From Elusimicrobiota bacterium (GTDB lineage Bacteria > Elusimicrobiota > Elusimicrobia > Elusimicrobiales > UBA9959), in the NCBI GenBank assembly GCA_036574205.1, contig JAINCQ010000002.1, positions 1-44,710 of the forward strand: DNA of 44,710 nucleotides. The letters run 5' to 3'. The notes below the pieces were generated by a model. The model made no database searches. It worked only from the letters and a program-made list of their open reading frames with translations, and was not told the origin of the DNA. Numbering within the stretch: position 1 is the stretch's first letter; each line of letters begins with the position of its first letter. This document shows positions 1 to 21,327 of this stretch, piece by piece. The position numbers and the translations under genes are program-made.

Positions 1-36
1 ATTAAAAGATCTTTCTAATATAAAAAATATTAGTAA

Positions 37-91
37 TTATCCACAGAATTATGAGATTATTGGCACACACAAAAACTATTCATGTGGATAA
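37..91. promoter_or_regulatory. Pair of perfect DnaA boxes in inverted orientation
   Basis: TTATCCACA at 37-45 and TGTGGATAA at 83-91 in AT-rich non-coding DNA; both match consensus TTATNCACA. Confidence 0.6.
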
Positions 92-139
92 CTAATATGG
101 TTACATTCTTAGATGAGTTGACAGGATATCAAAAATCTA

Positions 140-844
140 CTAAAAACCAAGTTTGAGACAAAGTTCTTTATAAATTTTTATGTCAGATATAAATCTTTCT
201 TTAATCTGATTTATAATAACATCCCTTTCCTCAGGTTTCTTGATCATTAATTTATATATTTCGTTTAACTCAAGCTCTTTCTTTTTTTCTTTGTAAATAT
301 CAGTCATTTTAGAAACTATAAATATATCATCCATAATATATCTTAACCTGAAAACTGCAGATTCAGAACCCAGCCCAAACTCAATCTCAGCTTTTTTAAG
401 CAATCTTAAAAGCGCTTTTAGGTCTTTTTTCTCATAAGCCTCATTGATCTCTCCCATACGAAATTCGTAAAATTCCTTTTCCCAACCTTCTAGATATGAA
501 AAATTATCAGGGTGATAAATTTTTGCAAGTTTTCTATAAATTCTTTTTACATCATTTATATCAACTTTTTCGCTCACATCATCTTCTTTATCCGCTGGCA
601 AATTTTCGTCACTTTCTTTTATGCCAAGAAGCCTGTTTTTAAGATCTTCTATGATTTTTATATAGACTCCAAGTTCTTTCAAATAATAACTCTTATAAAA
701 CTTTTTTATTCCAGCTTCCATTGATATATATTCAGCAACAGTCTCAAAAAGCTCTCGCTCTTTTAAAAAAAGAGTTTTTCTCGCCTCTCTTATTTTCTCG
801 TTATATTCTTTCTCTTTTGAAATAAGTGCCTTAGATTTTTCCAT
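140..844 (-). CDS. J-domain (DnaJ-like co-chaperone) protein with coiled-coil flanks
   Basis: Central VKRIYRKLAKIYHPD...MGEINEAYE is a J-domain with the HPD motif; the flanks are charged and helical. Confidence 0.85.
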   Translation of the reverse strand: MEKSKALISKEKEYNEKIREARKTLFLKERELFETVAEYISMEAGIKKFYKSYYLKELGVYIKIIEDLKNRLLGIKESDENLPADKEDDVSEKVDINDVKRIYRKLAKIYHPDNFSYLEGWEKEFYEFRMGEINEAYEKKDLKALLRLLKKAEIEFGLGSESAVFRLRYIMDDIFIVSKMTDIYKEKKKELELNEIYKLMIKKPEERDVIINQIKERFISDIKIYKELCLKLGF

Positions 845-845
845 A

Positions 846-1214
846 TCACCTTGCTAGAAAATACAATTTTAAAAGACTTTCAATCTTTTCTATATCCTGT
901 GGCTTTAAGACATAATCAAAAGCCCCCTCCTTAATACTTTTTGAGGCTATATCCATAGTAGAATTCTGGCATATAACTATAACACAAACATCTGGATTTT
1001 TGTCATGAGCTAATTTATTAACTTCAAGTGCGGTAAGCCCATATATAAAAGCATCTGTTATTACGATATCATAGGGCAAAAGAAGCAATTTTTCTCTCGC
1101 AACCTTAGCATCACTTACATGCTCTATTTTAATATCTTCATATTTCTTCACCATCTGGCAAACCCTTTCAATTACATATAATTCATCTTCTATAAAAAGA
1201 AGCTTTTTTACCAT
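846..1214 (-). CDS. Single-domain response regulator (receiver domain)
   Basis: LLFIEDE, DIVITD (phospho-Asp), GAFDYVLKP. Start moved to ATG 1214, which overlaps the upstream stop (ATGGTAA). The usual Thr/Ser position is Cys (VIVIC). Confidence 0.85.
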   Translation of the reverse strand: MVKKLLFIEDELYVIERVCQMVKKYEDIKIEHVSDAKVAREKLLLLPYDIVITDAFIYGLTALEVNKLAHDKNPDVCVIVICQNSTMDIASKSIKEGAFDYVLKPQDIEKIESLLKLYFLAR

Positions 1215-2407
1215 TCTATCCAAAGCCATTTAATCTTCTCCCTTTTGACAAACCCAGGATTTTTATTAGATAACTCTTTGAGCGAAATATATCCTTCTAT
1301 ATATAATAGCGGGGAATCTGCTAAATTAATTACTCTCTTGCCAATTTCTCTAAAATTAGCATCCATCTCTATCCTGACAATTGGCTTTAAAGGTTTAGAC
1401 TTATTTATAAATAAAACTCTACCCACCTCACCGCTTGAAAGTTTTACAAAACTTCCACATGGATACAAAGTAAGAAAAGAAATAAGCCCCTTTATAGCTC
1501 TATGATGAAAAAGCCTTCTAGTTTTCCCTATAAAACCAGATAAAACCTCATGCTCATCAAATGCTTCTCTATAGCTTCTTTTATGCGTCAAGGCTTCATA
1601 AAAATCGGATATAGAAATAATCTGATATACCTCCTGTATTTCATCTCCACTTAATTTAAAATATCCAGATCCATCATACCTTTCATGAGATAAGTTTATT
1701 GCCTGGCAAACAAATTTTTTCATCTCTTCGTCATAACTAAACACCTTTGAAGCAATATTTATTCCGTCTTTTAAATGATTTTTAATAGTTTCTCTTTCAA
1801 TATCTGTAAATTCCCGTTCAACAGATGTTAGCAAACGATAATTTAACATCCCTATGTCTATAAACAGAGCAGATACAATCGCTTTTTTAATTTCATCGTC
1901 TGAATATTTCAATTCATTCATTATCCCGCAGGTTATTATCGCAAGGTTCAGAGCGTGAGAATAAAGATAGTTTGCCGGCGTAAGATATTTAAGGAAATTT
2001 GCAAAATACCCATTTCCCCTAACTTCATCCAGTATAAGCTGTGAAGCATAAAAAAAATCATCTGAGATATTGTAATATAATCCCTCTGAAATTTTTCTAA
2101 AATCCCTTGAAACTATTGAAATAAGATTTGAATAGGTATAATGAGATTTTTCCCTTAATATAACCTCATCAAATTCTATTTTATCATTATCTATTGGTTT
2201 TATCCCCTCATCCATCTTATTAGAAAAACTTGCTGTTTCAGGAGGTTTTGAGGGTAATTCCTGAATTTTATTTTCTTTTTTATCTATAAGTGGAATAGAA
2301 CTATTTAAAGTATTTGAAACATCTTCTTTTATCTCTTTTTTTGAGTCAGGTAGATCTTCTCTTTTTTTTAATAGTTTTTCACTTTTATCAAGGTCTGAAA
2401 ATTTCAT
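1208..2407 (-). CDS. HD-GYP domain protein with degenerate active site
   Basis: YSHALN, ALFIDIGM (HD->ID), KNH, SHERYDGSGYF (HHE..GYP variant), ISDFYEALTHKRSYR. N-terminus is low-complexity. ATG 2407 preferred over TTG 2413. Confidence 0.8.
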   Translation of the reverse strand: MKFSDLDKSEKLLKKREDLPDSKKEIKEDVSNTLNSSIPLIDKKENKIQELPSKPPETASFSNKMDEGIKPIDNDKIEFDEVILREKSHYTYSNLISIVSRDFRKISEGLYYNISDDFFYASQLILDEVRGNGYFANFLKYLTPANYLYSHALNLAIITCGIMNELKYSDDEIKKAIVSALFIDIGMLNYRLLTSVEREFTDIERETIKNHLKDGINIASKVFSYDEEMKKFVCQAINLSHERYDGSGYFKLSGDEIQEVYQIISISDFYEALTHKRSYREAFDEHEVLSGFIGKTRRLFHHRAIKGLISFLTLYPCGSFVKLSSGEVGRVLFINKSKPLKPIVRIEMDANFREIGKRVINLADSPLLYIEGYISLKELSNKNPGFVKREKIKWLWIEW

Positions 2408-2543
2408 AATCAAATTTTACCACTGAGATATTAAATTTTCATTACATTTTTTTGTCAGTTTTTTCTTTTAAACTGGCAAAAGCAGAATTTACTTAGAAAA
2501 TCAAAACAAACATAAGTTAGCTAGTATTTAGTTTTAAGCAAGT

Positions 2544-3650
2544 TTATTTTAAAGATTTTTTATAAATCCTGTATTTTTTATAAACCTTCCCGCCAAATTT
2601 TTCTATTGTTTTATTTATTTTTATATTATCCTCAAGCGTCCATGAAAGCTCACCCCATTCCCAGCCAAGCTTTCTGGCAGTTTCTATTGCTTTTAAAATC
2701 ATAAGCAGCTCTATCCCTTTTCCTCTATATTCTGCATTTACTCCTAAGGCAAGCATTCTTCCTGATTTAATTTTAAATAGATATTTATAAAACATTGAAA
2801 AAATATTTAAAGGAGTTATTTTTCCATTTAAGGATTTTAAAACAATATTTAAATCTGGAAGCATTAAACAAAAAGCAACCGGAATATTATTTTCCCTTGC
2901 AAAAAAAATAAACTCTTTCTTAAGTATAGGCTTAAGTTCCTTAGTCATCTGCTCTATCTCACTATCGCTCATTGGAACAAAACCCCAATTTTTTTCCCAT
3001 GCCTTGTTATAAACTGATTTGACATCATCAAATATGGCTGATAAATTTTTAATATCGCCAAACTCTATACTTAGCCCCTTGTTGGCATCCCATATCCTTT
3101 GTGCCACATTTTCAAACCTTGAAAGAATAGCCTCATCATAAACCCATTTAAAAGCATATAAATCTTTTTCTTTTATATATCCATTTTTTTCAATAAGTCT
3201 TTGATAATAGGAAGGATTATACGGCATCATTATTGTATTTGGTTCATCAAAATTATCTATTAAAACCCCCCATGAATAATTACTTGAAGGATTGGCAGGC
3301 CCCATTATAAAAGAGCACCCTTTTTCTTTAGCCCATTTTTCAACTTCACTAAAAAGCAGGTTTGAAACATTTTCATCGTTTATCAGATCAAAAAAACCAA
3401 AAAAGGAAGCATTTTCGCCATGAAATTGGTTATACCTGTGGTTTATTATTCCTGCTATTCTCCCCAGAATTTTCCCGTCATCCTCTACCACAAAAAACTT
3501 TTTCTCCGCACATCTCCAGAAAGGATGTTTGTCAGAAAGAAGAAATTTAACATTACCTTTTAATTCCCCAACCCAATTCTTATTATTTCTAAAAAGACGA
3601 TAAGGAAAATCAACAAATTCATTTAAATCTAATGCCTCTCTTAAATGCAT
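2544..3650 (-). CDS. YghO-like double-GNAT acyltransferase, probable bacterial ceramide synthase (bCerS)
   Basis: Family motifs FVDFPYRLF..NKNWV, GRIAGIIN, FGFFD, MGPANPS, MPYNPSYY, AWEKNWGFVP, LGVNAEYRGKG, ELSWTLEDN. Lies 22 bp downstream of spt. Confidence 0.75.
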   Translation of the reverse strand: MHLREALDLNEFVDFPYRLFRNNKNWVGELKGNVKFLLSDKHPFWRCAEKKFFVVEDDGKILGRIAGIINHRYNQFHGENASFFGFFDLINDENVSNLLFSEVEKWAKEKGCSFIMGPANPSSNYSWGVLIDNFDEPNTIMMPYNPSYYQRLIEKNGYIKEKDLYAFKWVYDEAILSRFENVAQRIWDANKGLSIEFGDIKNLSAIFDDVKSVYNKAWEKNWGFVPMSDSEIEQMTKELKPILKKEFIFFARENNIPVAFCLMLPDLNIVLKSLNGKITPLNIFSMFYKYLFKIKSGRMLALGVNAEYRGKGIELLMILKAIETARKLGWEWGELSWTLEDNIKINKTIEKFGGKVYKKYRIYKKSLK

Positions 3651-3672
3651 CGAACAGGAGCTCCATTAAAGC

Positions 3673-4878
3673 TCATAAAGTTTTACTTTTATGCGTTCCC
3701 ATAACAGATTTATAACATTTTTCAAAAATATTAAGTGCTCTATCAAGATGTTCTCTGGTATGAGTCGCTGTAACCACAACTCTTAAAAGGGTTCTTTTGG
3801 GAGGCACGGCAGGACTTATTACAGGATTTGAAAAAACGCCGTTTTCAAAAAGCATCTTCCACAACATAAATGTTTTTTCGTTGTCACCTATAAGTATCGG
3901 GATTATAGGCGTCTGGGTTGGACCAATGTTTGCTCCTATCTCCTTAAATTTTTTCAAAAGATATCTTGAATTATCCCACAATTTTTTCCTTCTCTCCGGC
4001 TCTGTTTCTATAATATCTATTGCTTTTGAAATCGTCGCCACACAAGAAGGGGGTAGAGCTGCTGAGAAAATCATTGATCTTGAAATATGTTGTATATAAT
4101 CTATAACATCAGCATCCCCAACAACAAACCCACCAACTGAGGCAAAACTTTTAGAACAGGTTCCAACTACAAGATCTATTTCACCTTTTTCAAGCCCAAA
4201 ATATTCTGAGGTTCCTCTACCATTTTCACCTAATACACCTGTTGCGTGAGCATCATCTACTATAAGTCTTGCTTTATATTTTTTGCAAACCTCAACTATT
4301 TGCGGTAATGGTGCAATATCCCCCTCCATAGAAAAAACCCCATCAACAATTACAAGTTTTCCTCTTCTTTTGTCAATAGATTTTAATACCTTATCAAGAC
4401 TTTGTACATCGTTATGTTTAAATCTTTTAATTTCAGCACCACTTAATCTTGCGCCATCTATTATGCTGGCATGATCAAGTTTATCCACTATAACCACATC
4501 CCCGTTTGAAGCAAGCGCCGATACTACCCCAAGATTCATCTGATATCCAGTAGCATATATTAAAGCCCTCTGTCTGTTCTTAAATTTTGCAAGTTTTCTT
4601 TCAAGCTCCTCATGAAGCACAGTATTACCATTTAAAAATCTTGAACCTGCAACCCCGGTGCCAAATCTTTCTATGGCTTCCATAGCAGCAGACTTCATCC
4701 TCGGATCATTTGCAAGCCCAAGATAATTATTTGATCCAAACATTATAAACCTTTTACCGCCTATCAAAACCTCTGGAGCCTGCTCAGATTCAAGTGCTTT
4801 AAAATATGGATATATCCCCTTTTCTTTTAATTCATTCACAATTGTAAAATTTCTTACTTTTTCAAATAAATCTGTCAT
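3673..4878 (-). CDS. spt: Serine palmitoyltransferase (alpha-oxoamine synthase family, PLP)
   Basis: GIYPYF..ESEQ, MFGSNNYLGL, GSRFLNG, DHASI, DGVFSMEGD, DDAHA, GTCSKS (PLP Lys). N-terminus resembles Bacteroidota SPT more than BioF or Kbl. Confidence 0.82.
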   Translation of the reverse strand: MTDLFEKVRNFTIVNELKEKGIYPYFKALESEQAPEVLIGGKRFIMFGSNNYLGLANDPRMKSAAMEAIERFGTGVAGSRFLNGNTVLHEELERKLAKFKNRQRALIYATGYQMNLGVVSALASNGDVVIVDKLDHASIIDGARLSGAEIKRFKHNDVQSLDKVLKSIDKRRGKLVIVDGVFSMEGDIAPLPQIVEVCKKYKARLIVDDAHATGVLGENGRGTSEYFGLEKGEIDLVVGTCSKSFASVGGFVVGDADVIDYIQHISRSMIFSAALPPSCVATISKAIDIIETEPERRKKLWDNSRYLLKKFKEIGANIGPTQTPIIPILIGDNEKTFMLWKMLFENGVFSNPVISPAVPPKRTLLRVVVTATHTREHLDRALNIFEKCYKSVMGTHKSKTL

Positions 4879-4901
4879 ATAATAAACATTGTATTATTTA
4901 T

Positions 4902-5369
4902 TTAAACTTTTTTCAATTGAGATTTTCTCAATATTGCTGTAGTAGACCTACCTTTTAAAAGCTTAACTATAACAACCTTTTTAGCAAATTCTTTTCCAAC
5001 AACATTTTCCTTTGAATAATCCCCTCCCTTTACAAGCACATCAGGCATTATCAGTTTTATAAGATTATAAGGGGTAAGAGAATTAAAAACTACAATATAA
5101 TCGACATATTCTATCGCAGAAAGAACTATTACTCTATCAGGCAGAGGATTTACAGGTCTTTCTTTACCTTTAAGCGCTTTAACAGAACGATCGCCATTAA
5201 GCCCCACAACCAGGATGTCGCCCATACTCTTTGCCTGACTTAAAACTTTAATATGACCACTATGAATTATATCAAAACATCCATTTGTAAAAACTATTTT
5301 TTTCCCCTCTCTTTTCATTTTTTTCAGTATCCTAATAAGTTTTTTTAGAGTTATTTCTTTTGTCTTCAT
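4902..5369 (-). CDS. rfaE2: D-glycero-beta-D-manno-heptose 1-phosphate adenylyltransferase
   Basis: VFTNGCFDIIHSGH, VVGLNGDRSV..LKG..RP, PDVLVKGGDY, GRSTT. Confidence 0.92.
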   Translation of the reverse strand: MKTKEITLKKLIRILKKMKREGKKIVFTNGCFDIIHSGHIKVLSQAKSMGDILVVGLNGDRSVKALKGKERPVNPLPDRVIVLSAIEYVDYIVVFNSLTPYNLIKLIMPDVLVKGGDYSKENVVGKEFAKKVVIVKLLKGRSTTAILRKSQLKKV

Positions 5370-5386
5370 ATAAAGTTTAAAGTTTT

Positions 5387-6766
5387 TTATTTACCAATGC
5401 TTGTTTTTTCCAATATCAGTTTGGGTATAAATTCTTCAAGATATTTAGTATGAACATTGGCTCTTTTGAAATTTAAGTCATTGAGTATTTCCTTGTGAAG
5501 CCCCAATGTTGTCTTTATCCCTTTTATTTGAAATTCATCTATTGCTCTTGCTGATTTTAATATAGCATCTTTTCTTGTAGGTGCCCAGATTATCAACTTT
5601 GCTATCATGCTGTCATAATATGGAGGTATTTTATAACCGGGGTAAATATGGGTATCAACCCTTACTCCATTTCCCATAGGGAAAACCACATCTGAAATAG
5701 TTCCAACATTTGGCATAAAATTTTTTTCCCAATCTTCTGCATTTATTCTGTGTTCTATTGAATGTCCTCTGAAACCATCTACATATCTGGAAGATATATC
5801 CATCTCAAAGCCCTGGGCTATTAAAATTTGTTCTTTCACAAGGTCAACCCCACATATTGATTCTGTCACCGGATGTTCAACCTGAAGCCTTGTATTTACT
5901 TCCATAAAATAAAAATTTTTATCTTCATCCATTAAAAACTCTACAGTTCCAACACCATGGTAATTAGCACTATCAGCAAGTTTTTCAGTAACCTTTTGCA
6001 GTTTTTTTCTAACATCAGGTGTAACAAAAGGTGAAGGAGTTTCTTCTATAAGCTTTTGATGTCTTCTTTGAAGCGTACAATCCCTTTCTGGGAAAGCCAC
6101 TACATTGCCATGAAAATCTCTGGCAAACTGTATTTCTATATGTCTTGGCTTATCTATATATTTTTCAAAAAACACATCATCGTTTCCAAAAGCAGCCTTT
6201 GCTTCTTGCTGAGCCATTTCAACTTCTTTAATAAGAGAACTTTCTTCTGTAACTATCCTCATACCCTTTCCACCGCCACCTGCCGCAGCTTTTATCATTA
6301 TAGGAAATCCTATCTTTTTTGCAATTTTAATAAAATCTTTTTTAACACAACCGTTAGAACCAGGGGTTATGGGTACCCCGGATTTTCTGGCAAGCTCTCT
6401 TGCCATAGATTTATGCCCAAGAAGTTTTATTGAATCAGGATTGGGACCTATAAAAATAAGCCCATTTCGTAAGCATTGTTTTGAAAATTCTGCGTTTTCA
6501 GAAAGAAAACCGTAGCCCGGATGGATAGCATCCGATTTTGTAATAAGCGCGGCTGATATAATTCTGTCCATTTTAAGATAACTTTCCTTTGCCGGGCTGT
6601 CGCCAATGCATATAGCTTCATCCGCCATATCAAGATGAAGGGAATTTTTATCCGCTTTAGAATAAATAGCAACAGATTTTATTCCCATTTCCTTTAAAGT
6701 CCTTATAACCCTAACAGCTATTTCACCACGATTTGCAACAAGAACTTTTTTAAATTCTTTTTTCAC
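5387..6766 (-). CDS. accC: Acetyl-CoA carboxylase biotin carboxylase subunit
   Basis: KVLVANRGEIA, IHPGYGFLSEN, KAAAGGGGKG, ERDCTLQRRHQK, FMEVNTRLQVEHPVTE, YYDSMIAK. GTG start at 6766 follows an AGGAGG SD and overlaps the upstream TAG. Confidence 0.95.
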   Translation of the reverse strand: MKKEFKKVLVANRGEIAVRVIRTLKEMGIKSVAIYSKADKNSLHLDMADEAICIGDSPAKESYLKMDRIISAALITKSDAIHPGYGFLSENAEFSKQCLRNGLIFIGPNPDSIKLLGHKSMARELARKSGVPITPGSNGCVKKDFIKIAKKIGFPIMIKAAAGGGGKGMRIVTEESSLIKEVEMAQQEAKAAFGNDDVFFEKYIDKPRHIEIQFARDFHGNVVAFPERDCTLQRRHQKLIEETPSPFVTPDVRKKLQKVTEKLADSANYHGVGTVEFLMDEDKNFYFMEVNTRLQVEHPVTESICGVDLVKEQILIAQGFEMDISSRYVDGFRGHSIEHRINAEDWEKNFMPNVGTISDVVFPMGNGVRVDTHIYPGYKIPPYYDSMIAKLIIWAPTRKDAILKSARAIDEFQIKGIKTTLGLHKEILNDLNFKRANVHTKYLEEFIPKLILEKTSIGK

Positions 6767-8400
6767 TATTCCTCCTTCAATTGTTTTATATTTATTGTCC
6801 TTTCCCATAAATTAACTATTCCCTCATACCTCAATATATCAAATCTTTTTTTGCCAGATTTTTTTACTCTTATTTCCACTTTATAAGATGGGCCATTTAG
6901 ATAATTACATACATATTCAGTTTCATATTTTAACTTTGAAACATCAAATGTCTTTTTTAATTCACTATCTATAAAATCATTAATATTAACTCCATCTATT
7001 TTGTAATTTTTAAGATATTTAATAGCATCAGAACAAGATTCTCCTTTAAGCATTGAAATCCTTTTTTCAGCTTCTTTTTTTTCAATTCCATCTTCACATA
7101 TCGAAATAGCACTGGCAAGATCGTTCATAGCGCTGTTGTATTTTTTGGTTGCAACATATCCATCAGCCCTTGCTAAAAAAACAGAACACTTGTTTTTAAT
7201 CGGGACATCTGGATTTGAAATAAGCAGATCATATATTTTAATAGACTCTTCAATCCTATCTGTAAAGCGAAGACTATCTGCATAATTGAACCTATACCAG
7301 AATAACTCTTCTTCATTATAGTATTTTATGGGATAGATAGCGGAAAGTTCAACTACCCTTCTGCAACTGTCTATTGCTTTATCATATAACCTCATAAAAT
7401 ATTCGCTCCAGCAAAGATATCCGCTTGACCGTGGATCAAGAGGATCTATAAGATACAATTTCTGGGACAAAAACAATGATTTTGAAAAATCCCTCTGCGA
7501 AAAAGCCTCATCTATATCTCTAAATAAATTCCACACATAAGGCCTTGTCCACACTCCATGTTCTTTTACAAAGTTAAGATAATCATCCCTCCACTGTCCA
7601 TCTCCTTCTTTCAGTTTGTAAACAATAACACTTTGATTCTCCTCAAAATAATATATTTTTAAATCTTTAAATTCCCAGCTACCAATCTTAGAATAATAAC
7701 TTTCACTTGCTTTTAGATAATCGGTAAAACTCACAATAGTTTTTGAATTATTGGAAAGATAATTATAGGCTTTTTCATAATTCCTTTCTTTTAGCGCATT
7801 TAAATATTTTTTTGCTGTATAAAGCAACTCATATCTTGAAATACTCTTTCTAACAAAAAGAAGATAAGACGCTATAATAGATACCACAAGTGAAGAAAAT
7901 ATAATTATAAAAATTCTCTTTTTATAGTTATCTTTTTTAACCTGTAAAGTACTTGTGATTGGCTGGGCATTTTTCTCATCAAAAGAAGAATTTTTAATAT
8001 AATCTTCAATCTTTTTCTTTTCATCCTCCGTTTTCTTAATTTTGCTTTCAACTTCTTTTTGTTCTTCAGCGTTGATTTTTTGTTTTTCATTTTCTTTTCG
8101 ATAGCTGTCGTCTTTCTTCCAAACACTTTCATTGATAGGCTCAAACTCAAGCTTTATTTTTTTTTCTTCTTTTGGCGGGATATCATCTTTGCGATTAGAA
8201 GAATCTATTTTTTTTTGGGGAGTAAGAGCAAGCAATTCACCACAATTGTCGCAGCGTGATTTTTCAACAGAATTTTCATGACCGCATTTACCGCAAATTT
8301 TTACTATCTCTCCACCACATTTTATACACACATCAGTTATTATATTTGGCTCATAACCGCATTTTTTACAAATTATTTTACTTGGATTTATATTATCCAT
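6766..8400 (-). CDS. Double zinc-ribbon, single-TM, TPR-containing membrane protein
   Basis: Four N-terminal CxxC pairs (CKKC, CIKC, CGKC, CDNC), charged linker, hydrophobic IFIIIFSSLVVSIIASYLLF, NTF2-like segment (YEKAYNYLS), then TPR-like helices. Confidence 0.75.
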   Translation of the reverse strand: MDNINPSKIICKKCGYEPNIITDVCIKCGGEIVKICGKCGHENSVEKSRCDNCGELLALTPQKKIDSSNRKDDIPPKEEKKIKLEFEPINESVWKKDDSYRKENEKQKINAEEQKEVESKIKKTEDEKKKIEDYIKNSSFDEKNAQPITSTLQVKKDNYKKRIFIIIFSSLVVSIIASYLLFVRKSISRYELLYTAKKYLNALKERNYEKAYNYLSNNSKTIVSFTDYLKASESYYSKIGSWEFKDLKIYYFEENQSVIVYKLKEGDGQWRDDYLNFVKEHGVWTRPYVWNLFRDIDEAFSQRDFSKSLFLSQKLYLIDPLDPRSSGYLCWSEYFMRLYDKAIDSCRRVVELSAIYPIKYYNEEELFWYRFNYADSLRFTDRIEESIKIYDLLISNPDVPIKNKCSVFLARADGYVATKKYNSAMNDLASAISICEDGIEKKEAEKRISMLKGESCSDAIKYLKNYKIDGVNINDFIDSELKKTFDVSKLKYETEYVCNYLNGPSYKVEIRVKKSGKKRFDILRYEGIVNLWERTINIKQLKEE

Positions 8401-8413
8401 AAAACTGAAAATT

Positions 8414-8782
8414 TTATTCTATTATAAAAAGGAGTTGAGAATATTCAACAACATCGCCATCATCCACACATACAACTTTTATCTTACCGTCTGTTGGAGA
8501 GACGACCTCAAATTCTCTATTTAGAACCTTAACATATCCTAGCACATCCCCTTTTTTTACAACATCTCCTTGTTTTATTTCACTGGATTTACCTTTTTTT
8601 GAAAAATTAAACAACCCCACTTCAGGCGAAACTACACTAACCAGATTTGAAACTATTTTAGTAGAAGATTTTTCTCCTTCTTTAACAAGAGAAACTTTGA
8701 AATTACCTTTTCTAAAAGAAAGTTCAACAAGATCTGAATCGCTAAACCATTTATTTATATCTGAAATTTCTTCAATTTTCAT
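8414..8782 (-). CDS. AccB/BCCP-like protein lacking the biotinylated lysine
   Basis: AccB-like N-terminus (SDLVELSF) and biotinyl fold (VVSPEVGLF, VKKGDVLG, SPTDGKI, DGDVVEYSQLLF). EAMKM is replaced by KVLNR. GGAGG SD present. Confidence 0.8.
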   Translation of the reverse strand: MKIEEISDINKWFSDSDLVELSFRKGNFKVSLVKEGEKSSTKIVSNLVSVVSPEVGLFNFSKKGKSSEIKQGDVVKKGDVLGYVKVLNREFEVVSPTDGKIKVVCVDDGDVVEYSQLLFIIE

Positions 8783-8824
8783 AAAACCTCCATTAAAAAA
8801 CTACAAGTTTTGACATAAAAAATA

Positions 8825-9241
8825 TTATAATCCTGCTTTTCCGGGCTCAAAAGGTTTATATATAAGTTTTGACACCTTTATCAAACTAACCTTTTCCTTA
8901 TTTTTTTCTATTGGATGATAATCGACACATATCACATGGGAAGACTTATCAGCAAATTCAAGTATAACCTGCCTGCAGGCGCCGCATGGAGTAGCGGATC
9001 TTGCCACCACACAAATGTCTTTAATAGACTTTTCTCCATTTGCTATAGCCTTAAATATTGCCACACGCTCTGCGCATATTGAAAGACCGAAAGAAGCATT
9101 TTCTATATTTGTCCCGGTATATATTTTTCCACTTCCCCCAACAACACTTGCTCCAACTGGATATCTTGAATATGGCGAATATGAGTTTTTCTGAGCTTTT
9201 TTAGCAAACTCTATTAATTTTCTCATTAATTTTCTATCCAT
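8825..9241 (-). CDS. cdd: Cytidine deaminase (homotetrameric type)
   Basis: YSPYSRYPVGA, GTNIENAS, CAER, PCGACRQ zinc motifs. Confidence 0.93.
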   Translation of the reverse strand: MDRKLMRKLIEFAKKAQKNSYSPYSRYPVGASVVGGSGKIYTGTNIENASFGLSICAERVAIFKAIANGEKSIKDICVVARSATPCGACRQVILEFADKSSHVICVDYHPIEKNKEKVSLIKVSKLIYKPFEPGKAGL

Positions 9242-9246
9242 TTTTT

Positions 9247-10104
9247 TTACCCTATTATCAATTTTAATTTAGCAAGATTTTTAGCGGATATATTATCTCT
9301 TGAAGTTAGCAGGGAATTTGGTGGCAGTTTCTCACAATTACAAGAAGGTTTAATAGATGAAATTTCTGGAATTGTTATAACCAAAAGTTTTTTAATGTTT
9401 TCAATATTCTTATGAATAGTATCTAAAACTTTCTCCTGAGATACTTCATCTTCTTCTTTCCAGCAGTCATAATCAGTGACAAGAGAAACAGGGACATAAT
9501 GCAAACCCGCTTCTTTTGCAACCTTACATTCGGTGGCAACAGTCATCCCAATTATTGAATATCCCTGCCTTCTATGATACTCACTTTCTGCTTTAGTTGA
9601 AAATTGAGGTCCTTCCATACAGACATAAACTCCCCCAAGATGTGATTTTATTCCGATTTCAAGCGCTTTTTTGTGTATAAATTTAGAATAATCCATACAG
9701 AAAGGATGAGCAAGGGGAACATGAGCAACAACCCCATTTCCAAAGAAAGTGCTTATCCTATTCTTAGTTTCATCAACAAACTGATCTGGAAATACAAAAT
9801 GAGAAGGAGCAAGATCTTCCTTTAAAGATCCAACCGCACTTACAGAAATGATAACCTCAACACCAAGCGATTTTAGCGCCCACATATTTGCCTGATGAGG
9901 AATTTCTGAAGGTAGTATGGTATGATTTCTCCCGTGTCTTGGCAAAAACAATACTGGAACCCCTGAAATCTTTCCATAAATCAAATTATCACTGGTTTTC
10001 CCAAAAGGAGTTTTGATTTTAATTTCTTTTTTATCTTTCAACTCCTCTATTTTATAAAGTCCGCTTCCGCCTATAACAGCAACTTTTGCTTTAAATTTTT
10101 TCAT
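9247..10104 (-). CDS. mtnP: S-methyl-5'-thioadenosine phosphorylase
   Basis: IGGSG, TPFG, PRHG..H, SAVGSL, EGPQFSTKAES, IGMT, VTDYDCW. ATG 10104 follows a GGGAG SD. Confidence 0.92.
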   Translation of the reverse strand: MKKFKAKVAVIGGSGLYKIEELKDKKEIKIKTPFGKTSDNLIYGKISGVPVLFLPRHGRNHTILPSEIPHQANMWALKSLGVEVIISVSAVGSLKEDLAPSHFVFPDQFVDETKNRISTFFGNGVVAHVPLAHPFCMDYSKFIHKKALEIGIKSHLGGVYVCMEGPQFSTKAESEYHRRQGYSIIGMTVATECKVAKEAGLHYVPVSLVTDYDCWKEEDEVSQEKVLDTIHKNIENIKKLLVITIPEISSIKPSCNCEKLPPNSLLTSRDNISAKNLAKLKLIIG

Positions 10105-13258: not shown

Positions 13259-14518
13259 TTACTGAGAGATCTTTTCTCCAATAAGGCTTTCAAGCGATAT
13301 TTTTCTAAGATAAACATTTTTAATATATTCAGTGTAATTTTGTCTTGAATCAACAAGATTTTGTTCTATATTCTCAAGATCTATATAACTCATTTTCCCG
13401 GCCATATATTTTATCTGAGCTTCTTTATATCTTTCTTCATTTGCCTCAAGCAATATAGCATATGTTTTTACAGTAGAAACGGAATTTAGATACTCGTTAT
13501 ATGCATTTTGAATATCATTTTCAGCGCTTATTATATAAGCGTTAAGCTTCTCTCTTGTTGATCTCAGGGTTTCCTTAAGCATATCTACATTGTTTTTATA
13601 ATATGTTATACCAGAAGAAAAAAGCGGAAACGAAAGACCAAGCCCAATAGACCATGTCATATTTGTATCTGGAAATTCAGATTTTCCAGAATATCCCCTG
13701 GATGCAGAAAAACTGAGTTTTGGTAGCCAATCATATTTATTTGTTTTTAATTTTTCCTCAGCAAGAAGTATGTTCTTTTCAAAAATTTTATAAGCAGGTG
13801 TAGATTTGATATAATCGATTATTTTATCCCGCTCAAATAGTATTTGAGGCATAGAAATATTTTCTCTAACTAAAATTTCATCCTTAATTTTAATTCCTAT
13901 TGCGTTTTTAAGATTGTTTGATGCTATTTCAATCTGTCTTTTTGATTTATCAAGATTAAGTCTTGCCATTTCATATTGCGCTACAGCATAAAGCATATTC
14001 CCTTTAGATTCAAATCCACTTTGATATTTAAGTTTTATCAAATCCGCATTATTTTTTCTTATCTCAACTATTTTCTCATTGACCCTGTAGGTTTCCTGCG
14101 CAAAAAGAAGATTATAAAAGGCAGTATAAATATTTTTTCTTAAATCTATAAGGTAGCTTTCATAGTTTAACTGTGCAATCTCATAGTTTATTCTGGAACT
14201 TTTAATTGTATAAATAGAGTCATAATCAAAAATATTTTGAGAAACGCTTGCTGAAAGTGAAAAAGTATTAGAAGTCTGGTTGTTATCTCCGCCAGATCTT
14301 GAAAAATTATTTGAAAGGTTAATCTTTGGAAGATAGGAGTTAAGCGAAGAGTAATAAGAATATTTAGCAGATTCAAGCTCGGCAAGCTTTGATTTTAAGG
14401 CTGGATTATTTTCAAAAGCTAAATTAATACATTCTTTAAGAGTAAGCTCAATGGCTTTGGACAAATCTATAAAAGTAAAAAACAACAAACATACAAGAAT
14501 TACTTTGTTTTTTTTCAT
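13259..14518 (-). CDS. tolC: TolC-family outer membrane efflux protein
   Basis: Signal peptide, LTLKECINLAFENNP, two LPK(I/L) beta repeats, LSFPLF, KYMAG..SYID. Confidence 0.88.
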   Translation of the reverse strand: MKKNKVILVCLLFFTFIDLSKAIELTLKECINLAFENNPALKSKLAELESAKYSYYSSLNSYLPKINLSNNFSRSGGDNNQTSNTFSLSASVSQNIFDYDSIYTIKSSRINYEIAQLNYESYLIDLRKNIYTAFYNLLFAQETYRVNEKIVEIRKNNADLIKLKYQSGFESKGNMLYAVAQYEMARLNLDKSKRQIEIASNNLKNAIGIKIKDEILVRENISMPQILFERDKIIDYIKSTPAYKIFEKNILLAEEKLKTNKYDWLPKLSFSASRGYSGKSEFPDTNMTWSIGLGLSFPLFSSGITYYKNNVDMLKETLRSTREKLNAYIISAENDIQNAYNEYLNSVSTVKTYAILLEANEERYKEAQIKYMAGKMSYIDLENIEQNLVDSRQNYTEYIKNVYLRKISLESLIGEKISQ

Positions 14519-14600
14519 ACAAACTCCCTACATCTCATACCTATATTATATTAACGATTTTACAGCAAAATTATTGCATTATTATAAAGAACTTAATAAC

Positions 14601-14627
14601 TTACCTACCAGTAAGTAAATTATAGCA
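14601..14627 (-). promoter_or_regulatory. Extended -10 promoter with adjacent palindromic operator for tolC-macA-macB
   Basis: Minus-strand TGCTATAAT at 14627-14619, immediately followed by the dyad TTACCTAC-CA-GTAAGTAA (14601-14618, one mismatch). Confidence 0.55.
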
Positions 14628-14667
14628 AATAAAAGACAACAATTTCTTGTAAGATATCTATACATAG

Positions 14668-14725
14668 CTGTCTGCGTGCCTGCCTGAGCAAAGACACTCG
14701 CAGTCAGGCGGACACGCACAGGCAG
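14668..14725. repeat. GC-rich imperfect inverted repeat (REP-like hairpin)
   Basis: Arms CTGTCTGCGTGCCTGCCTGA (14668-14687) and TCAGGCGGACACGCACAGGCAG (14704-14725). Confidence 0.65.
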
Positions 14726-14801
14726 GTTGGACTTTTCATGATTTTTAAATTGTTTATCTAAAAACCAATTTATTGGCGTTTTTCCGATTTAATTATTTTC
14801 A

Positions 14802-14837
14802 CCCTCACCTTAATCCTCTCCCATTAAAGGGAGAGGA
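14802..14837 (+). repeat. BoxC-like palindromic repeat, copy 1
   Basis: CCCTCACCTTAA followed by the perfect stem TCCTCTCCC-attaaa-GGGAGAGGA. Confidence 0.7.
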
Positions 14838-14929
14838 AAATGAGTGTTAGCAAGGCATGAATACTAATTTTCTGGACAGTTTAATTCCTTTCATATGTTT
14901 ATATTTTCCCTCTCCCCATTTTAATATAT

Positions 14930-14963
14930 CCCCTCTCCTTTTTTGGAGAGGGTTAGGGTGAGG
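14930..14963 (-). repeat. BoxC-like palindromic repeat, copy 2 (inverted)
   Basis: Reverse complement reads CCTCACCCTAACCCTCTCC-aaaaaa-GGAGAGGGG. Confidence 0.7.
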
Positions 14964-15034
14964 AGATTTAAGGGGGAAGGGATGGTTTTTAAGCGTTTAA
15001 GGAAGGTAAAATTAGGTTTTGTTCAGATTAAAAA

Positions 15035-15156
15035 ATTATCCACACTTTAACCACGATCGTATAAAATCAGTGTATGTTATTCATAGGAAAGTTATATAAT
15101 TTCCGCTAAATGATTATACACAGTTTAACCACGATCGTGTAAAATTAGTGTATGTT
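15035..15156. repeat. Two 44-bp direct repeats separated by a 34-bp spacer
   Basis: 15035-15078 and 15113-15156 are 40/44 identical. Each starts with TTAT(C/A)CACA and has an ACGATCGT dyad. Confidence 0.85.
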
Positions 15157-15179
15157 TTTTTTGAAAGCAAAATACCTTA

Positions 15180-15200
15180 GACTGACCGCCCAGCTCAGTC
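15180..15200. terminator. Small hairpin downstream of addB, possible terminator
   Basis: GACTGA-N9-TCAGTC; no clean U-tract. Confidence 0.25.
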
Positions 15201-15362
15201 CGCTATTGGAGATATATCTATTTTTTTATTACACACTTTTCAATAGATTTACAAATATTATTCTACAGCTTAACGACATTAAAATCTGTCCATTATGTTT
15301 CTGATATTTTGCATTTCTATATTATAAAAAGAACTTTTAATCAAGAATATAAAATTCAAAAA

Positions 15363-18176
15363 CTATAACCTGTCACATATTGTTTTATAGGGACAGTATT
15401 CACAGTTATTATCATTTTCAGGTGGGTTGAAATAATCATCATCTATAATCTCAGAGATAATATTTTTAACAAAATCCATTACTTTATTAATATTTTCATT
15501 TTCAAACGTAATAATTTCTTCAGGGATCACTTTTATATCCCTTTCATGTAAACACAAAAATTCAGCAGTTGTATTGGATATATCAGCTCCTTCAACATTC
15601 TTTAAATTCTTTAAGCCAGCAAAACAATAAACATAAATAAATAATTGAAGCAAATTAAGTTTTTTCCCACCTCGAAACTCAGACAGCATTTTATCTAAAT
15701 TCATCTTTTCAACTCCATTTAAATCAATGTGTCCTGTTTTATAATCGGTTATTATAAATTCGTTCTTTCCATCTTTTGATATTTTATCAACTCTATCTAT
15801 TCTTGCATTGAATTTAACATATTTTTCTTTATCATACTGCAAATCAAAAGAAATATTTTTCTCACACATAATAATCTCTCTATCTCTATGATTTTTGAAA
15901 TGAAATTCAATAAAATCAGAAAGCCTGTTTAAAATCTGTTTTTTAAACATATAATCCTTAAGACTTATTCTATCTTGAATTTTTCTTTTTATTTCTTCTT
16001 CAAAGATACCAAAAATAGTCTTTTTCTCCTTGTCTTTGTCTTTATCTATAAAAGTTTTACCTATATATTTAGAAAAATATTTTTCAAATACTTTATGCAA
16101 AATAATTCCTATCTCATTTTTCTCAAAATCTTCCTTTATCTCTTCATTTTCAGAAAGCCCAAGCACATACTGATAATAAAAGCTGAGCTGACATTTTAAG
16201 TAATTTTCTATGGCTGAATATGAATAAGACATAGAAGAAAGTAACCTTTTAATCTCATCAGTTTTTTTGATTTTACTTAGATCTTTTTTATTAAAATTAA
16301 TATTAAAAACCGGTGTTGTTTCTTTAAAATCTTTATCTTCTTTCTCATAAAGCCATTTTATTTTCTCAAGTAAAGGACTTATTTCCCTCTCTTTATTATC
16401 AACATAATAAGCATAAAAATTTTCACATCCATAAAAAAGCAAGTGGAAATAATAAGAATATATATCAAATGAGGTTTTTGAATCCGGTATATTAAGTTCT
16501 TTTCTAACAAAATCAGGTATAACAGAATCCTTCTTTTTTATGTTGGGCAAGATTTCATTATTTAAATCTAACATAAAAACATTTTTAAATTTAAGATTTC
16601 TTGCTTCAAGAAAACCTATACATTGAAGTCCCTTGATAGGAGAGCCTTTAAACGGATGGGTTTTTGTATTGAAAAATATCTTAATAAAATCAAAATATGA
16701 CTTTTTCTCATTAAAAACCAACTTTGATATCTCACTATTTTTTATTTCTTCAATTATATCACATATAACCTCATTAAAATAAGCCCAGTAATGATGTCTT
16801 GAAGCAGTAGAGTCTTTATCCAGGTATTTCAGGATATTTAAAAGTTTGCTTAAAAAATCATCAACGTTTTTTATAGAATCAAACGATCGTATAAACAAAT
16901 CATTTATTCTCTTAATTATTTCACTATCCCCCTCAACATCAGACAAAGATATTCTTATATTCAAAGGTTTTTTAATTTTCTCAAATATGCGATGTATTTC
17001 TTTTCGTGTTTCTTCAGCCTTTTCACTATCAAATTTTATATTCTTAATGTAAGGATGATTTAAAAACTTAAAGTATTTTTCAATTGAATATAGTTTTTTA
17101 CCATCAACCTCAGTGGCTGATTCAATAAGTTCAAAAAGAAGCATAAACATTGAATAAATTGGGGTAAGTTTTAAAGGAAACCCACTTGAAACATTAAAAT
17201 CACTAAAATCTCCAAGCACATTATTAAGGAGTGAAGTAACAATACTTTCATCATTTATTACAACAACATTTTCTCTGCCAGCTTTAAACAAATTATTATC
17301 AATATGAGAAACTGAGATTAAATCCTTTCTTAATTCACTTAATTCTTCAAATGAGCTTGATACCTTTCTTACCACCAATTTTGGTATGTTTGTTTGAGGA
17401 GTACTATAATCTTCCACAGTAAAAGGGATATAATCTTTGATATTTCCTGTATTATAATAAAGAAAATAAGAGTTAGGATGATTATTGTATATATTCTTAA
17501 ATATAATCTTTTCACTTTCAGTTAAGGCAAAAAAACCTGCAAAAACAATATTTTTAAAACCACTCATATCATAATTCTTAATATTCTGGGAAACAAAAGA
17601 ATACTTCATTGATCTGGTATATCTCTTTTCTTTTTCTAGCTTCTGATAAAATTTAGCATAGATATCTGAAAATTTTATAAACCTATCGCTAAATTTTCTA
17701 AAAACATCATCCCTTGAAATACTTAACTCATTGAAAACTATAAAATCAAAATCCCTCATCTTCTGTGGCTCTACTCTGTGTATCTTAAGCTCTTCAAAAT
17801 CGGATAATATACTCAATGCAACAGGCAAAAAATAATCAAAAGCCATTTTATCTTCTTTATTTTTAATATCAAAGATCGCATTCTGTATATCATCACCAAA
17901 ATCATTTAAAAGGGAATAAATTAAATCATATTCACTTGCGGTTTTTGCCTGTGGATTGATTTTTTCAAACACAAAATTTATAAAATCATCCATCCCCATT
18001 AGTTTGGGCGCAGGAAGTGGTTTATTATCGTATGCTTTACTTATATAATCCACCAGAAAATAGCCTGGCCTTCTGTTTGGAAAGATCACAATAGAATTTT
18101 CCAGGTCATTATTAATTAAAGATAGGATTTCATCAAATATATCTTTTTGAATATCTATAAGTTTAACCTTTTCCAT
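15363..18176 (-). CDS. addB: AddB-like PD-(D/E)XK nuclease subunit with Fe-S cysteines
   Basis: IVIFPNRR, GFLEARNL, SYSAIENYLKCQL, RIDRVD..ITDYKTG, C-terminal CEYCPYKTIC; lies 2 bp after addA. Confidence 0.85.
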   Translation of the reverse strand: MEKVKLIDIQKDIFDEILSLINNDLENSIVIFPNRRPGYFLVDYISKAYDNKPLPAPKLMGMDDFINFVFEKINPQAKTASEYDLIYSLLNDFGDDIQNAIFDIKNKEDKMAFDYFLPVALSILSDFEELKIHRVEPQKMRDFDFIVFNELSISRDDVFRKFSDRFIKFSDIYAKFYQKLEKEKRYTRSMKYSFVSQNIKNYDMSGFKNIVFAGFFALTESEKIIFKNIYNNHPNSYFLYYNTGNIKDYIPFTVEDYSTPQTNIPKLVVRKVSSSFEELSELRKDLISVSHIDNNLFKAGRENVVVINDESIVTSLLNNVLGDFSDFNVSSGFPLKLTPIYSMFMLLFELIESATEVDGKKLYSIEKYFKFLNHPYIKNIKFDSEKAEETRKEIHRIFEKIKKPLNIRISLSDVEGDSEIIKRINDLFIRSFDSIKNVDDFLSKLLNILKYLDKDSTASRHHYWAYFNEVICDIIEEIKNSEISKLVFNEKKSYFDFIKIFFNTKTHPFKGSPIKGLQCIGFLEARNLKFKNVFMLDLNNEILPNIKKKDSVIPDFVRKELNIPDSKTSFDIYSYYFHLLFYGCENFYAYYVDNKEREISPLLEKIKWLYEKEDKDFKETTPVFNINFNKKDLSKIKKTDEIKRLLSSMSYSYSAIENYLKCQLSFYYQYVLGLSENEEIKEDFEKNEIGIILHKVFEKYFSKYIGKTFIDKDKDKEKKTIFGIFEEEIKRKIQDRISLKDYMFKKQILNRLSDFIEFHFKNHRDREIIMCEKNISFDLQYDKEKYVKFNARIDRVDKISKDGKNEFIITDYKTGHIDLNGVEKMNLDKMLSEFRGGKKLNLLQLFIYVYCFAGLKNLKNVEGADISNTTAEFLCLHERDIKVIPEEIITFENENINKVMDFVKNIISEIIDDDYFNPPENDNNCEYCPYKTICDRL

Positions 18177-18178
18177 AT

Positions 18179-21100: not shown

Positions 21101-21277
21101 GGTAAAGGTTATAGCAAGAATATTGGATATATCGTTATTATTAATCCTTTTAGAAAGCAAAAATTGAACATATCTTGAAACTAAGTTATATGTTTTTCCA
21201 GATCCAGCCGAAGAGCTCAATATAACAACATCAGGAAAAATTAACTCATCATCCTTTACTGGAAATTTATTTCCCAT
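18179..21277 (-). CDS. addA: AddA-like UvrD-family helicase/nuclease
   Basis: SSAGSGKT, ILAITFT, LIDEFQDTS, GDVKQAIYMFR, NYRS, MTFHKAKGLGF, YVALTRA, C-terminal DRL..IVDYKTG. Confidence 0.92.
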   Translation of the reverse strand: MGNKFPVKDDELIFPDVVILSSSAGSGKTYNLVSRYVQFLLSKRINNNDISNILAITFTENATKEMRQEIISLIKRIVKDKNKRDDFIKNLLGIDVNYEKMIVEKADRLLNKIFDNYYNFYVETIDSFIVKILSVSLNELRIPYDFEIVFDTEKGIKKSLTDYLERGDESDRKYIDDFLENINAVETNYVYDPFKKLVEMFSEINDKENKYLAKVVCSSKISLQDFKKLEEEIIRQSKALCDYNIGEFKNSFKLLENNDIKFIDGINEEAFLYNKNKGFDKKFNALPKETQNSFKDELKTLVLNVCDYYYHKAFIKYSKYSEFYLKFKEFYDNHYKKQKKIVLSRITAELSREIKNLSVPEIYFKLSSHLKHFLIDEFQDTSLSQWEILRPLIEESIATGGSCFLIGDVKQAIYMFRNADYKIMKSFLDDNKSVYLNTDSLRNGIEHFNLEKNYRSKKKIVEYVNKFFESIASSNPFGENLEGLKDYIEIFNKGQKSADNNDEGYVKSIMVEDREKLKEEFLNIIKDVSQRFNLDSIAVLVPRNDDVEEVVKWLYEIGINSASFSSLDIRKRKTINEILSFLKFINNHDNFNFSVFLLGDIVKKTIEKDFKKRIDFSDFIYKNKEKEFIYVDFRKEYPEIWNKYFDEIFAKSGYLSVYELLNLFFSKFLVYENFPQESAFFIKFFDIVNQLTLNENVCDITSLCKYFDDEKNSDYFAVNIPTDVVAVKVMTFHKAKGLGFDVVINIFENNHFNVRIPNIKYFIEGENIHILAINKDWLRFTVDNEKIKKLKDIYFNIEKEEYIAKLNVLYVALTRAKKELYNIVLPKKEPKNGNKKENDWLRNIFDKDFLGEYGKKYDQVKTDAEVSLSEFSHSKHLSAYNFIRDEKESYESLIGKIYHMVMSMIEYIPDDKLTDYIKKSADFYGLSINDIKLEEIKKDIYSAIEKMRDLFVYKTNRKIKNEFEFIYNSSIFRVDRLVIDDDCVYIVDYKTGLEKDYSRQMDIYKKIVSGYYKGKQVKCYIYYFDTKKIIEY

Positions 21278-21327
21278 AGTTATATTATAATAAACCCTTA
21301 AAGCATTAAAAAGGTATAATATTAATT

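Follow-up and report, generated by a model that had tools for sequence, protein, structure and literature searches.

Adjacent genes for a putative serine palmitoyltransferase and a bCerS-family acyltransferase suggest ceramide synthesis in an Elusimicrobiota bacterium

Results and Discussion

Two adjacent genes with a third candidate on another contig

The window analysed here is a stretch of 44,710 nucleotides of contig JAINCQ010000002.1 (contig C26 in this work), which belongs to an Elusimicrobiota genome of 1.85 Mb in 43 contigs that is 95% complete. Its minus strand includes a gene for a serine palmitoyltransferase-like (Spt-like) alpha-oxoamine synthase, spt, the product of which is named P0001, followed by a gene coding for P0002, a member of the YghO family of GNAT proteins (Table 1). 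A previous sequence-only reading of this DNA had described the pair as an Spt-like synthase and, after 22 bp, a YghO-like double-GNAT protein, and had proposed that the organism makes ceramides. The description, which left the strand unstated, was borne out by the open reading frames (ORFs), by the best protein family of P0001 and by the sequence match and predicted fold of P0002. The proposal also gains support at the sequence level, as each of the three enzymes known from bacterial ceramide synthesis has a candidate in the genome, the third being a short-chain dehydrogenase/reductase (SDR) encoded on contig C8.

P0001 is a fold-type I enzyme dependent on pyridoxal phosphate (PLP) with a match of 226 bits to PF00155. 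Its top NCBIfam family is NF047600, SerpalmtaseCFB, the Bacteroidota-type serine palmitoyltransferase (534.7 bits), and the next scores correspond to the BioF/Kbl family TIGR01825 (434.7 bits), bioF (410.9 bits) and Kbl (395.2 bits). When solved structures were searched, the best match was the serine palmitoyltransferase (SPT) of Sphingobacterium multivorum (PDB 3A2B/8GUH, 419 bits), which is likewise a stand-alone enzyme of about 400 amino acids. It was followed by ThAOS (327 bits), the Sphingomonas SPT (about 303 bits), Kbl (241-274 bits), two cysteate acyltransferases (268 and 252 bits) and BioF (about 217 bits). A HMMER alignment of P0001 to chain 8GUH was used to compare the residues named in the text of PMC10196870. 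Eleven of the 12 named active-site residues of the S. multivorum SPT are identical in P0001 (N50, G78, S79, H136, S183, D208, A210, H211, T240, S242 and K243), and the sole change is at Met271, a main-chain substrate contact, which is Ile270 in P0001. The Schiff-base lysine and the His/Asp/His contacts to PLP that characterize fold-type I enzymes are present, as K243, H136, D208 and H211 align with Lys244, His138, Asp210 and His213 of the S. multivorum SPT.

Searching the E. coli BL21(DE3) chromosome with P0001 identified spt as the best match (310.9 bits, 41% identity), with lower scores for kbl (239.2 bits) and bioF (218 bits). In the reverse direction the best match of the BL21 Spt was P0001 (303 bits), ahead of a paralogue encoded on contig C31 (194 bits), and the two proteins are therefore reciprocal best hits. 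This C31 paralogue is the only other alpha-oxoamine synthase in the genome, and its scores of 545.5 and 494.6 bits exceed the cut-offs of TIGR01825 and Kbl, respectively, so that a Kbl/BioF-type enzyme is already accounted for. The sequence-only reading had suggested a phylogeny against Kbl and BioF as a check. In a tree of 65 rows (59 Spt-like ORFs of related loci and six references) P0001 falls in a 62-row clade together with the BL21 Spt (SH-aLRT 97), with Kbl and the C31 paralogue, as well as BioF, outside; this tree was a quick search with long reference branches, and its locus rows were picked for lying near a YghO-like gene. P0001 can be considered a predicted Spt, which would condense L-serine with a long-chain acyl thioester.

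The predicted acyltransferase gene

P0002 and E. coli K-12 YghO share 30% identity (E = 2e-59) in a full-length alignment (residues 8-367). In Pfam, the only match is a GNAT domain of the C-terminal half, at residues 213-344 (PF00583, 32.2 bits). No NCBIfam model for the YghO family was found: P0002 matched none of the NCBIfam families and 128 members of its family gave weak generic GNAT matches. At the sequence level the PDB returned marginal GNAT matches only, with E values of 0.05 and above, and the copy of the PDB that was searched included no bCerS structure. The AlphaFold model of P0002, made from a 128-sequence alignment, has a mean pLDDT of 96.9, and Foldseek ranks tandem-GNAT enzymes first as its structural neighbours: glucosamine N-acetyltransferase 5KF1 (E = 4e-15, TM 0.60/0.69), MAB_4324 (7Q3A), 2WPW and the mycothiol synthase MshD. 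As regards its predicted fold, P0002 is thus aptly described as a double GNAT. While this predicted two-domain fold is shared, P0002 has only 8-14% identity to the solved tandem GNATs, and those act with acetyl-CoA on sugars or thiols.

With 6701 clusters at 50% identity (E ≤ 1e-3), the YghO family is a large one, and it includes natural fusions. In P0148 (780 amino acids) an N-terminal domain with NF047600 as its best family (470.4 bits) is followed by the GNAT, and P0194 (940 amino acids) carries an AMP-binding domain behind the GNAT. Through these fusions the GNAT is connected with Spt and with the activation of fatty acids. The text of PMC9386255 describes a yghO-aasR-epi-acpR-spt cluster in E. 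coli BL21(DE3) and pairs yghO (ECD_02850) with its Caulobacter homologue CC_1154, and ECD_02852 with CC_1164. These Caulobacter genes are cerS and cerR, respectively, and both are needed for dihydroceramide formation, as stated in the text of PMC11324152. In E. coli K-12 an IS5 element abuts yghO at the place where BL21 carries aasR-epi-acpR-spt.

The genome has a second YghO-family gene, located on a 3-kb contig (C16) beside an M48 peptidase gene. In a GNAT tree of 84 rows, from which one partial row had been dropped, P0002 belongs to a 23-row Elusimicrobiales clade (support 100) of which every member is linked to spt. The C16 paralogue belongs to a 12-row clade (support 96), and the other 11 members, all of them scanned loci, have no nearby spt. 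Members of the C16 clade include records of Zixibacteria, WOR-3, Eubacteriales and Aminicenantes. The distinction between spt-linked and non-linked YghO clades matters when bCerS is annotated by homology only. P0002 is predicted to be a bCerS-family acyltransferase, which would N-acylate a sphingoid base.

A CerR candidate on contig C8

The genome search for CerR that had been suggested with the sequence-only reading identified a candidate. The reductase of the BL21 cluster finds one clear relative in the genome, an SDR on contig C8 (E = 1.4e-25), with the next SDR at 3.1e-4. In the reverse search the C8 SDR retrieves the BL21 cluster reductase (2.8e-24) with rfaD next (6.6e-4), and the two proteins are thus reciprocal best hits. 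The C8 protein shows the GxxGxxG (TGGRGFIG) and YxxxK (YGLSK) motifs of extended SDRs. Its Rossmann motif begins at residue 2 and there is no visible signal peptide; the BL21 enzyme starts likewise. The CerR of Caulobacter is reportedly periplasmic. The absence of CerR and acyl carrier protein (ACP) genes from the window, also noted in the sequence-only reading, was confirmed, since the SDR matches lie on contigs C8 and C4 and the ACP matches on contigs C10 and C21.

Conservation of the gene pair

A sample of 121 genomes of the phylum was searched; as related genomes are not independent, the counts that follow describe a pattern and do not constitute a statistical test. P0002 has a match at E ≤ 1e-20 in 107 genomes, and some alpha-oxoamine synthase is found at E ≤ 1e-60 in 120. 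Among the best 150 of the 188 synthase matches, places at E ≤ 2.1e-121 were taken as Spt-like. The split among these listed matches is clean, with 106 Spt-like places in 105 genomes (47-100% identity) and Kbl-like matches from 4.8e-111 downward. The GNAT is present in every one of the 105 genomes with an Spt-like gene. The two matches are 8-406 nt apart at 101 of the 106 places (100 of the 105 genomes). The exceptions are genomes G013, G045, G049, G083 and G086, three of which have the genes on different contigs. The adjacency of spt and the GNAT gene is not a matter of chance. Both genes are missing from 14 genomes, and two genomes, G002 and G022, have a GNAT but no match that passes the Spt-like threshold. 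In the latter two a CerR-like SDR gene and the GNAT gene are 827 nt (G002, C11:104903-107694) and 357 nt (G022, C1:857787-860105) apart, a gap too small for a whole spt, and these loci may be decayed clusters.

A match to the C8 SDR at E ≤ 1e-15 was found in 110 of the 121 genomes. The SDR set used for comparison of gene positions consists of 102 places in 101 genomes, namely the 101 best (E ≤ 4.3e-30) and the best match of G061 (4.4e-24); not included were a second, weaker match in G023 and any further place with E > 4.3e-30. At 40 of the 106 Spt-like places (39 of the 105 genomes) this SDR gene and spt are separated by 39-185 nt, generating an SDR-spt-GNAT cluster. In the order to which the window belongs, the Elusimicrobiales, it is not linked to spt.

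To look beyond the phylum, species-representative genomes were scanned, which yielded 80 loci. Their labels include Elusimicrobiota, Acidobacteriota, Nitrospirota, delta-proteobacteria/Myxococcota (among them a Myxococcus isolate), Bacteroidota, Chlorobiaceae, Ignavibacteria, Gemmatimonadota, Verrucomicrobiota, Planctomycetota and others. An Spt-like gene flanks the GNAT gene in 62 of the 80 loci, as judged by tblastn, and an SDR gene is also present in 30 of these 62, the same place being matched by the C8 protein and by the BL21 reductase. The remaining 18 GNAT loci have no nearby Spt, and nine of them extend at least 5.4 kb on both sides.

Acyl supply and head group

Proteins equivalent to the AcpR/AasR pair of BL21 were looked for in the genome. 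No blastp match to AasR was found at E ≤ 1e-3 in this 95% complete assembly. The sole blastp match to AcpR is the single ACP on contig C10, which together with a PP-binding stretch at the end of contig C21 makes up all ACP-type matches. The only AMP-binding match is an ORF on contig C32 in which a LuxC-like acyl reductase half is fused with a PaaK/LuxE-like adenylating half (Table 1). As there is no AasR homologue and the AMP-binding match is this LuxC/LuxE-like fusion, the supply line of the AcpR/AasR type found in Rhodobacteria is absent, and the acyl supply of the system is probably of a Bacteroidota-like kind. Either acyl-ACP from fatty-acid synthesis or acyl-CoA probably serves as acyl donor. 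Because the Spt is Bacteroidota-like and no AcpR/AasR pair was found in the genome, the lack of an ACP gene in the window is no objection to ceramide synthesis.

Genes of the PAP2 family (PF14378/PF14360), which includes sphingolipid head-group transferases, accompany the cluster in 10 non-Elusimicrobiota loci; with blastp the number is 11 of the 80 loci (L040, L043, L062, L063, L067, L082, L094, L098, L101, L102 and L104). The gene lies beside the SDR-spt-GNAT cluster, and the PAP2_3/PAP2_C membrane protein that it encodes in these other phyla is a candidate sphingolipid head-group transferase. Seven loci of Bacteroidota, Chlorobi and Ignavibacteria have a class IV aminotransferase gene beside the GNAT gene instead of the PAP2 gene.

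The proposed pathway and its alternatives

Homology, predicted fold, conserved residues, synteny, co-occurrence and gene fusions were observed for these proteins and genes. We consider it likely that the adjacent pair encodes the enzymes for the first two steps of bacterial ceramide synthesis and the C8 SDR gene that for the third. As far as can be judged from its genes, production of sphingolipid-type membrane lipids by this organism is very probable. Spt would convert L-serine and a long-chain acyl thioester to 3-ketosphinganine, the tandem GNAT would N-acylate this product, and the C8 SDR would then reduce the 3-keto group to render dihydroceramide. The text of PMC11087976 gives this order, i.e., formation of 3-ketosphinganine by Spt, cytoplasmic N-acylation by the GNAT and keto reduction by the SDR, while the reverse order of the last two steps has been proposed by Olea-Ozuna and co-workers (PMC11087976, PMC9386255). 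For the organism described here we infer which substrates are used, in what order acylation and reduction take place, which head group the lipid finally carries and where in the cell the pathway runs.

A number of observations weigh against this assignment. The score of P0001 is under the curated cut-off of NF047600 (534.7 vs 640 bits), and it is also under those of NF047599 (411.8 vs 500) and NF047603 (350.5 vs 670). The text of PMC10196870 indicates that SPT reads the serine hydroxyl largely through water and the PLP phosphate, and for this reason sequence cannot fix the amino-acid substrate of P0001. The connection of P0002 to CC_1154 runs through YghO, the product of which, in the wording of PMC9386255, "might be" the N-acyltransferase. 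In addition, the C16 paralogue is nearer to E. coli YghO (35-36% identity) than P0002 is (30-31%). The linkage pattern of the two clades implies, on the other hand, that pairwise identity alone would pick the wrong gene, and by linkage P0002 is the partner of spt. The C8 SDR and the BL21 reductase share a low 24% identity (pairwise E = 1e-35), the best NCBIfam family of the C8 protein is HpnA, a hopanoid-associated sugar epimerase (117.6 bits vs a cut-off of 367.65), and its gene is not linked to spt in this genome (C8 vs C26). No ordinary long-chain acyl-CoA synthetase was found in the genome, nor was a head-group transferase, with no PAP2 homologue detected by blastp at E ≤ 0.01. The literature searched offers no lipid or enzyme data for any member of the Elusimicrobiota.

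The same three-enzyme logic could operate with another amino acid, so that glycine or alanine would lead to 1-deoxy long-chain bases, or cysteate to a sulfonolipid base, followed by N-acylation; the product would be a sphingolipid-like lipid and not a canonical ceramide. SPTs also take alanine and glycine, at low efficiency (PMC10196870), anoxic water in which Spt-like genes are common is rich in 1-deoxysphingolipids (10.1101/2024.01.25.577268), and cysteate acyltransferases belong to the same superfamily as Spt (text of PMC13692747). The substrate is not fixed by sequence alone. We nevertheless regard this outcome as unlikely: P0001 is closer to the serine-using SPT than to the two solved cysteate acyltransferases by the scores given above, serine- and cysteate-using enzymes are only about 30% identical to each other (PMC13692747, same text), and the named SPT active-site residues are identical in P0001 at all positions except one. 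It is very unlikely, in our judgement, that the genes are intact but the pathway halts at N-acyl-3-ketosphinganine or diverges after it, with the C8 SDR being a sugar or hopanoid-type epimerase and the product an oxidised ceramide or one that is processed by another reductase. The HpnA match, the low identity to the BL21 enzyme and the separation of the C8 gene from the spt contig, with unrelated neighbours (TspO, MFS and TonB/ExbBD), would agree with such a role. However, the HpnA score is far under the cut-off, the reciprocal best hits are about 20 orders of magnitude ahead of the next SDR, 39 genomes of the phylum have an orthologue of the C8 SDR right beside spt, and in the 30 loci of other phyla the C8 SDR and the BL21 reductase match one and the same gene. 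Slightly less probable still, in our judgement, is that the locus has no part in a membrane-lipid backbone and consists of a Kbl- or BioF-type synthase of amino-acid or biotin metabolism adjoining an unrelated acetyltransferase gene. The high scores of P0001 to the bioF and Kbl models, the existence of YghO-family GNATs without spt among the scanned loci and the requirement of the neighbouring accB for biotin can be cited in its favor. Against these stand the separate C31 paralogue that passes the Kbl and BioF/Kbl-family cut-offs, the position of P0001 apart from Kbl and BioF in the tree, the adjacency of the genes in 100 of 105 genomes, the natural Spt-GNAT fusions, and the GNAT tree, in which all 23 members of the P0002 clade are spt-linked and the non-linked GNATs lie in a different clade.

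If the ceramide pathway operates as proposed, a broader suggestion can be made, which we put forward tentatively and with somewhat less than even confidence. Ceramide-type lipids could be a near-universal core component of the envelope of the Elusimicrobiota, made through a minimal spt-bcerS(-cerR) module within an operon for acetyl-CoA carboxylase (accB/accC) and lipopolysaccharide heptose activation and with acyl groups taken from acyl-ACP, and the C16-type YghO subfamily could be a different, as yet undescribed lipid or amine N-acyltransferase. The module would draw the acyl groups straight from acyl-ACP because the small genomes lack an acyl-CoA synthetase and the AcpR/AasR pair. The YghO subfamily that is never linked to spt includes, besides the C16 paralogue, records of Bacillota, WOR-3 and Zixibacteria.

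Comparison with known systems

The three enzyme families found here are those of Caulobacter crescentus, Spt, bCerS (CC_1154) and CerR (CC_1164), and of the BL21(DE3) cluster. With respect to the BL21 genes, Spt and the SDR are reciprocal best hits and the GNAT is a full-length match to YghO, although identities are low (Spt 41%, GNAT 30% and SDR 24%). The differences from the BL21 cluster are that no AcpR or AasR homologue was found in this genome, that the reductase gene is unlinked, and that the LptF/G paralogues located beside the BL21 genes have no counterpart beside the genes described here. In working without a dedicated ACP or acyl-ACP synthetase the system resembles that of Bacteroidota and Myxococcota. 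The resemblance to the Bacteroidota-type SPT is incomplete, as P0001 is under the equivalog cut-off of 640, and while the three ceramide genes are unclustered in Bacteroidota (text of PMC11334938), the spt and acyltransferase genes are found here in one probable operon. The cysteate acyltransferases of sulfonolipid synthesis (CapB/SulA, PDB 28EH and 7U7H) belong to the same superfamily and also yield a long-chain base, but their match to P0001 is much weaker (268 and 252 vs 419 bits for SPT).

Bacterial sphingolipids have roles in outer-membrane stability and host signalling and, to our knowledge, they have been shown biochemically in few lineages only. The Elusimicrobiota are a little-studied phylum that has cultivated members, such as Elusimicrobium minutum and Endomicrobium proavitum, and includes insect-gut symbionts; the prediction made here for it is firm, concrete and spans the phylum. 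The sequence-only reading had called the lineage unexpected for ceramide synthesis, which proved to be an overstatement: surveys report, in the text of PMC11334938 and its preprint, homologues of Spt, bCerS and CerR in nine phyla, and Spt-like genes in 38 Black Sea phyla and about 40 phyla in all. The word Elusimicrobi is absent from the main text of both, the phylum lists being located in a figure and in the supplements, and the Elusimicrobiota may already be included in those published lists. A literature search joining Elusimicrobi with "serine palmitoyltransferase" found nothing. Titles and abstracts that combine Elusimicrobi with sphingolipid or ceramide are almost all correlations of diet and gut microbiome, plus a few reviews or unrelated papers, and none among the matches listed deals with these genes. 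Judged from its genes, the finding would extend a known pathway to another lineage and would not represent a new type of pathway.

Genetic context of the pair and other features of the window

The co-directional genes upstream of spt are accB, accC and a gene for heptose 1-phosphate adenylyltransferase, rfaE(II) (Table 1). Gaps in this string are short, 17 nt between accC and rfaE, 23 nt between rfaE and spt, and 22 nt between spt and the GNAT gene. The order accB-accC-rfaE(II)-spt-GNAT is kept in all 21 Elusimicrobiales-type loci, with rfaE(II) directly upstream of spt in each of them, and in 11 of the 21 a gene for a double-zinc-ribbon protein lies between accB and accC. In the window the N-terminal double zinc ribbon is the sole recognisable part of this protein, and its gene overlaps the start of accC by 43 nt. 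No terminator-like sites were found on the minus strand of positions 1-9500. A promoter scan was uninformative (49 sites vs 40.2 ± 6.6 expected); it included one 10/12 match at 4916-4888, just upstream of spt. The pair is probably co-transcribed inside the conserved string, and lies amid genes for fatty-acid and lipopolysaccharide-core synthesis. Such a neighbourhood fits a role in envelope lipids, and is no proof of co-transcription.

Table 1. Location of the features discussed. Positions are those of the window unless a contig is given.
Feature	Position	Strand	Remarks
spt (P0001), Spt-like alpha-oxoamine synthase	3673-4878	minus	401 aa, ATG start
bcerS-like gene (P0002), predicted YghO-family tandem-GNAT N-acyltransferase	2544-3650	minus	368 aa, ATG start
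spt-GNAT spacer	3651-3672	minus	22 nt; GGAG ribosome-binding site 11 nt ahead of GNAT ATG
SDR, CerR candidate	C8:52131-53078	minus	315 aa
YghO-family paralogue	C16:612-1727	minus	371 aa
Heptose 1-phosphate adenylyltransferase (RfaE domain II)	4902-5369	minus	TIGR02199, 181.9 bits vs cut-off 181.5; 23 nt before spt
accC	5387-6808	minus	Pfam; co-directional with spt
Double-zinc-ribbon protein	6766-8400	minus	544 aa; Pfam; between accB and accC
accB	8414-8782	minus	Pfam; co-directional with spt
LuxC + PaaK/LuxE-like fusion	C32:10889-13291 (L113:1390-3792)	minus	800 aa
Low-G+C stretch	14001-22000		G+C 26-29%
AddA/AddB-like helicase-nuclease pair	15363-21277		Within the low-G+C stretch
Cobalamin-dependent methionine synthase	25408-28598	plus	Apparently split in two ORFs
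Giant ORF	28683-44708	minus	At least 5341 aa; runs off the window end

Three other features of the window were observed. The stretch that includes the AddA/AddB-like pair has a lower G+C content than the rest of the window, where it is 31-38%. The gene for cobalamin-dependent methionine synthase appears as an 816-amino acid ORF with the Hcy, pterin and B12 domains and an overlapping 247-amino acid ORF with the activation domain. In the giant ORF, the last 4999 residues have no Pfam match at E ≤ 1e-5. In its product the residues S, T, I, V, G, N and D are abundant and Cys is scarce. The protein has no internal repeats detectable by blastp against itself and, as a guess, resembles a surface protein.

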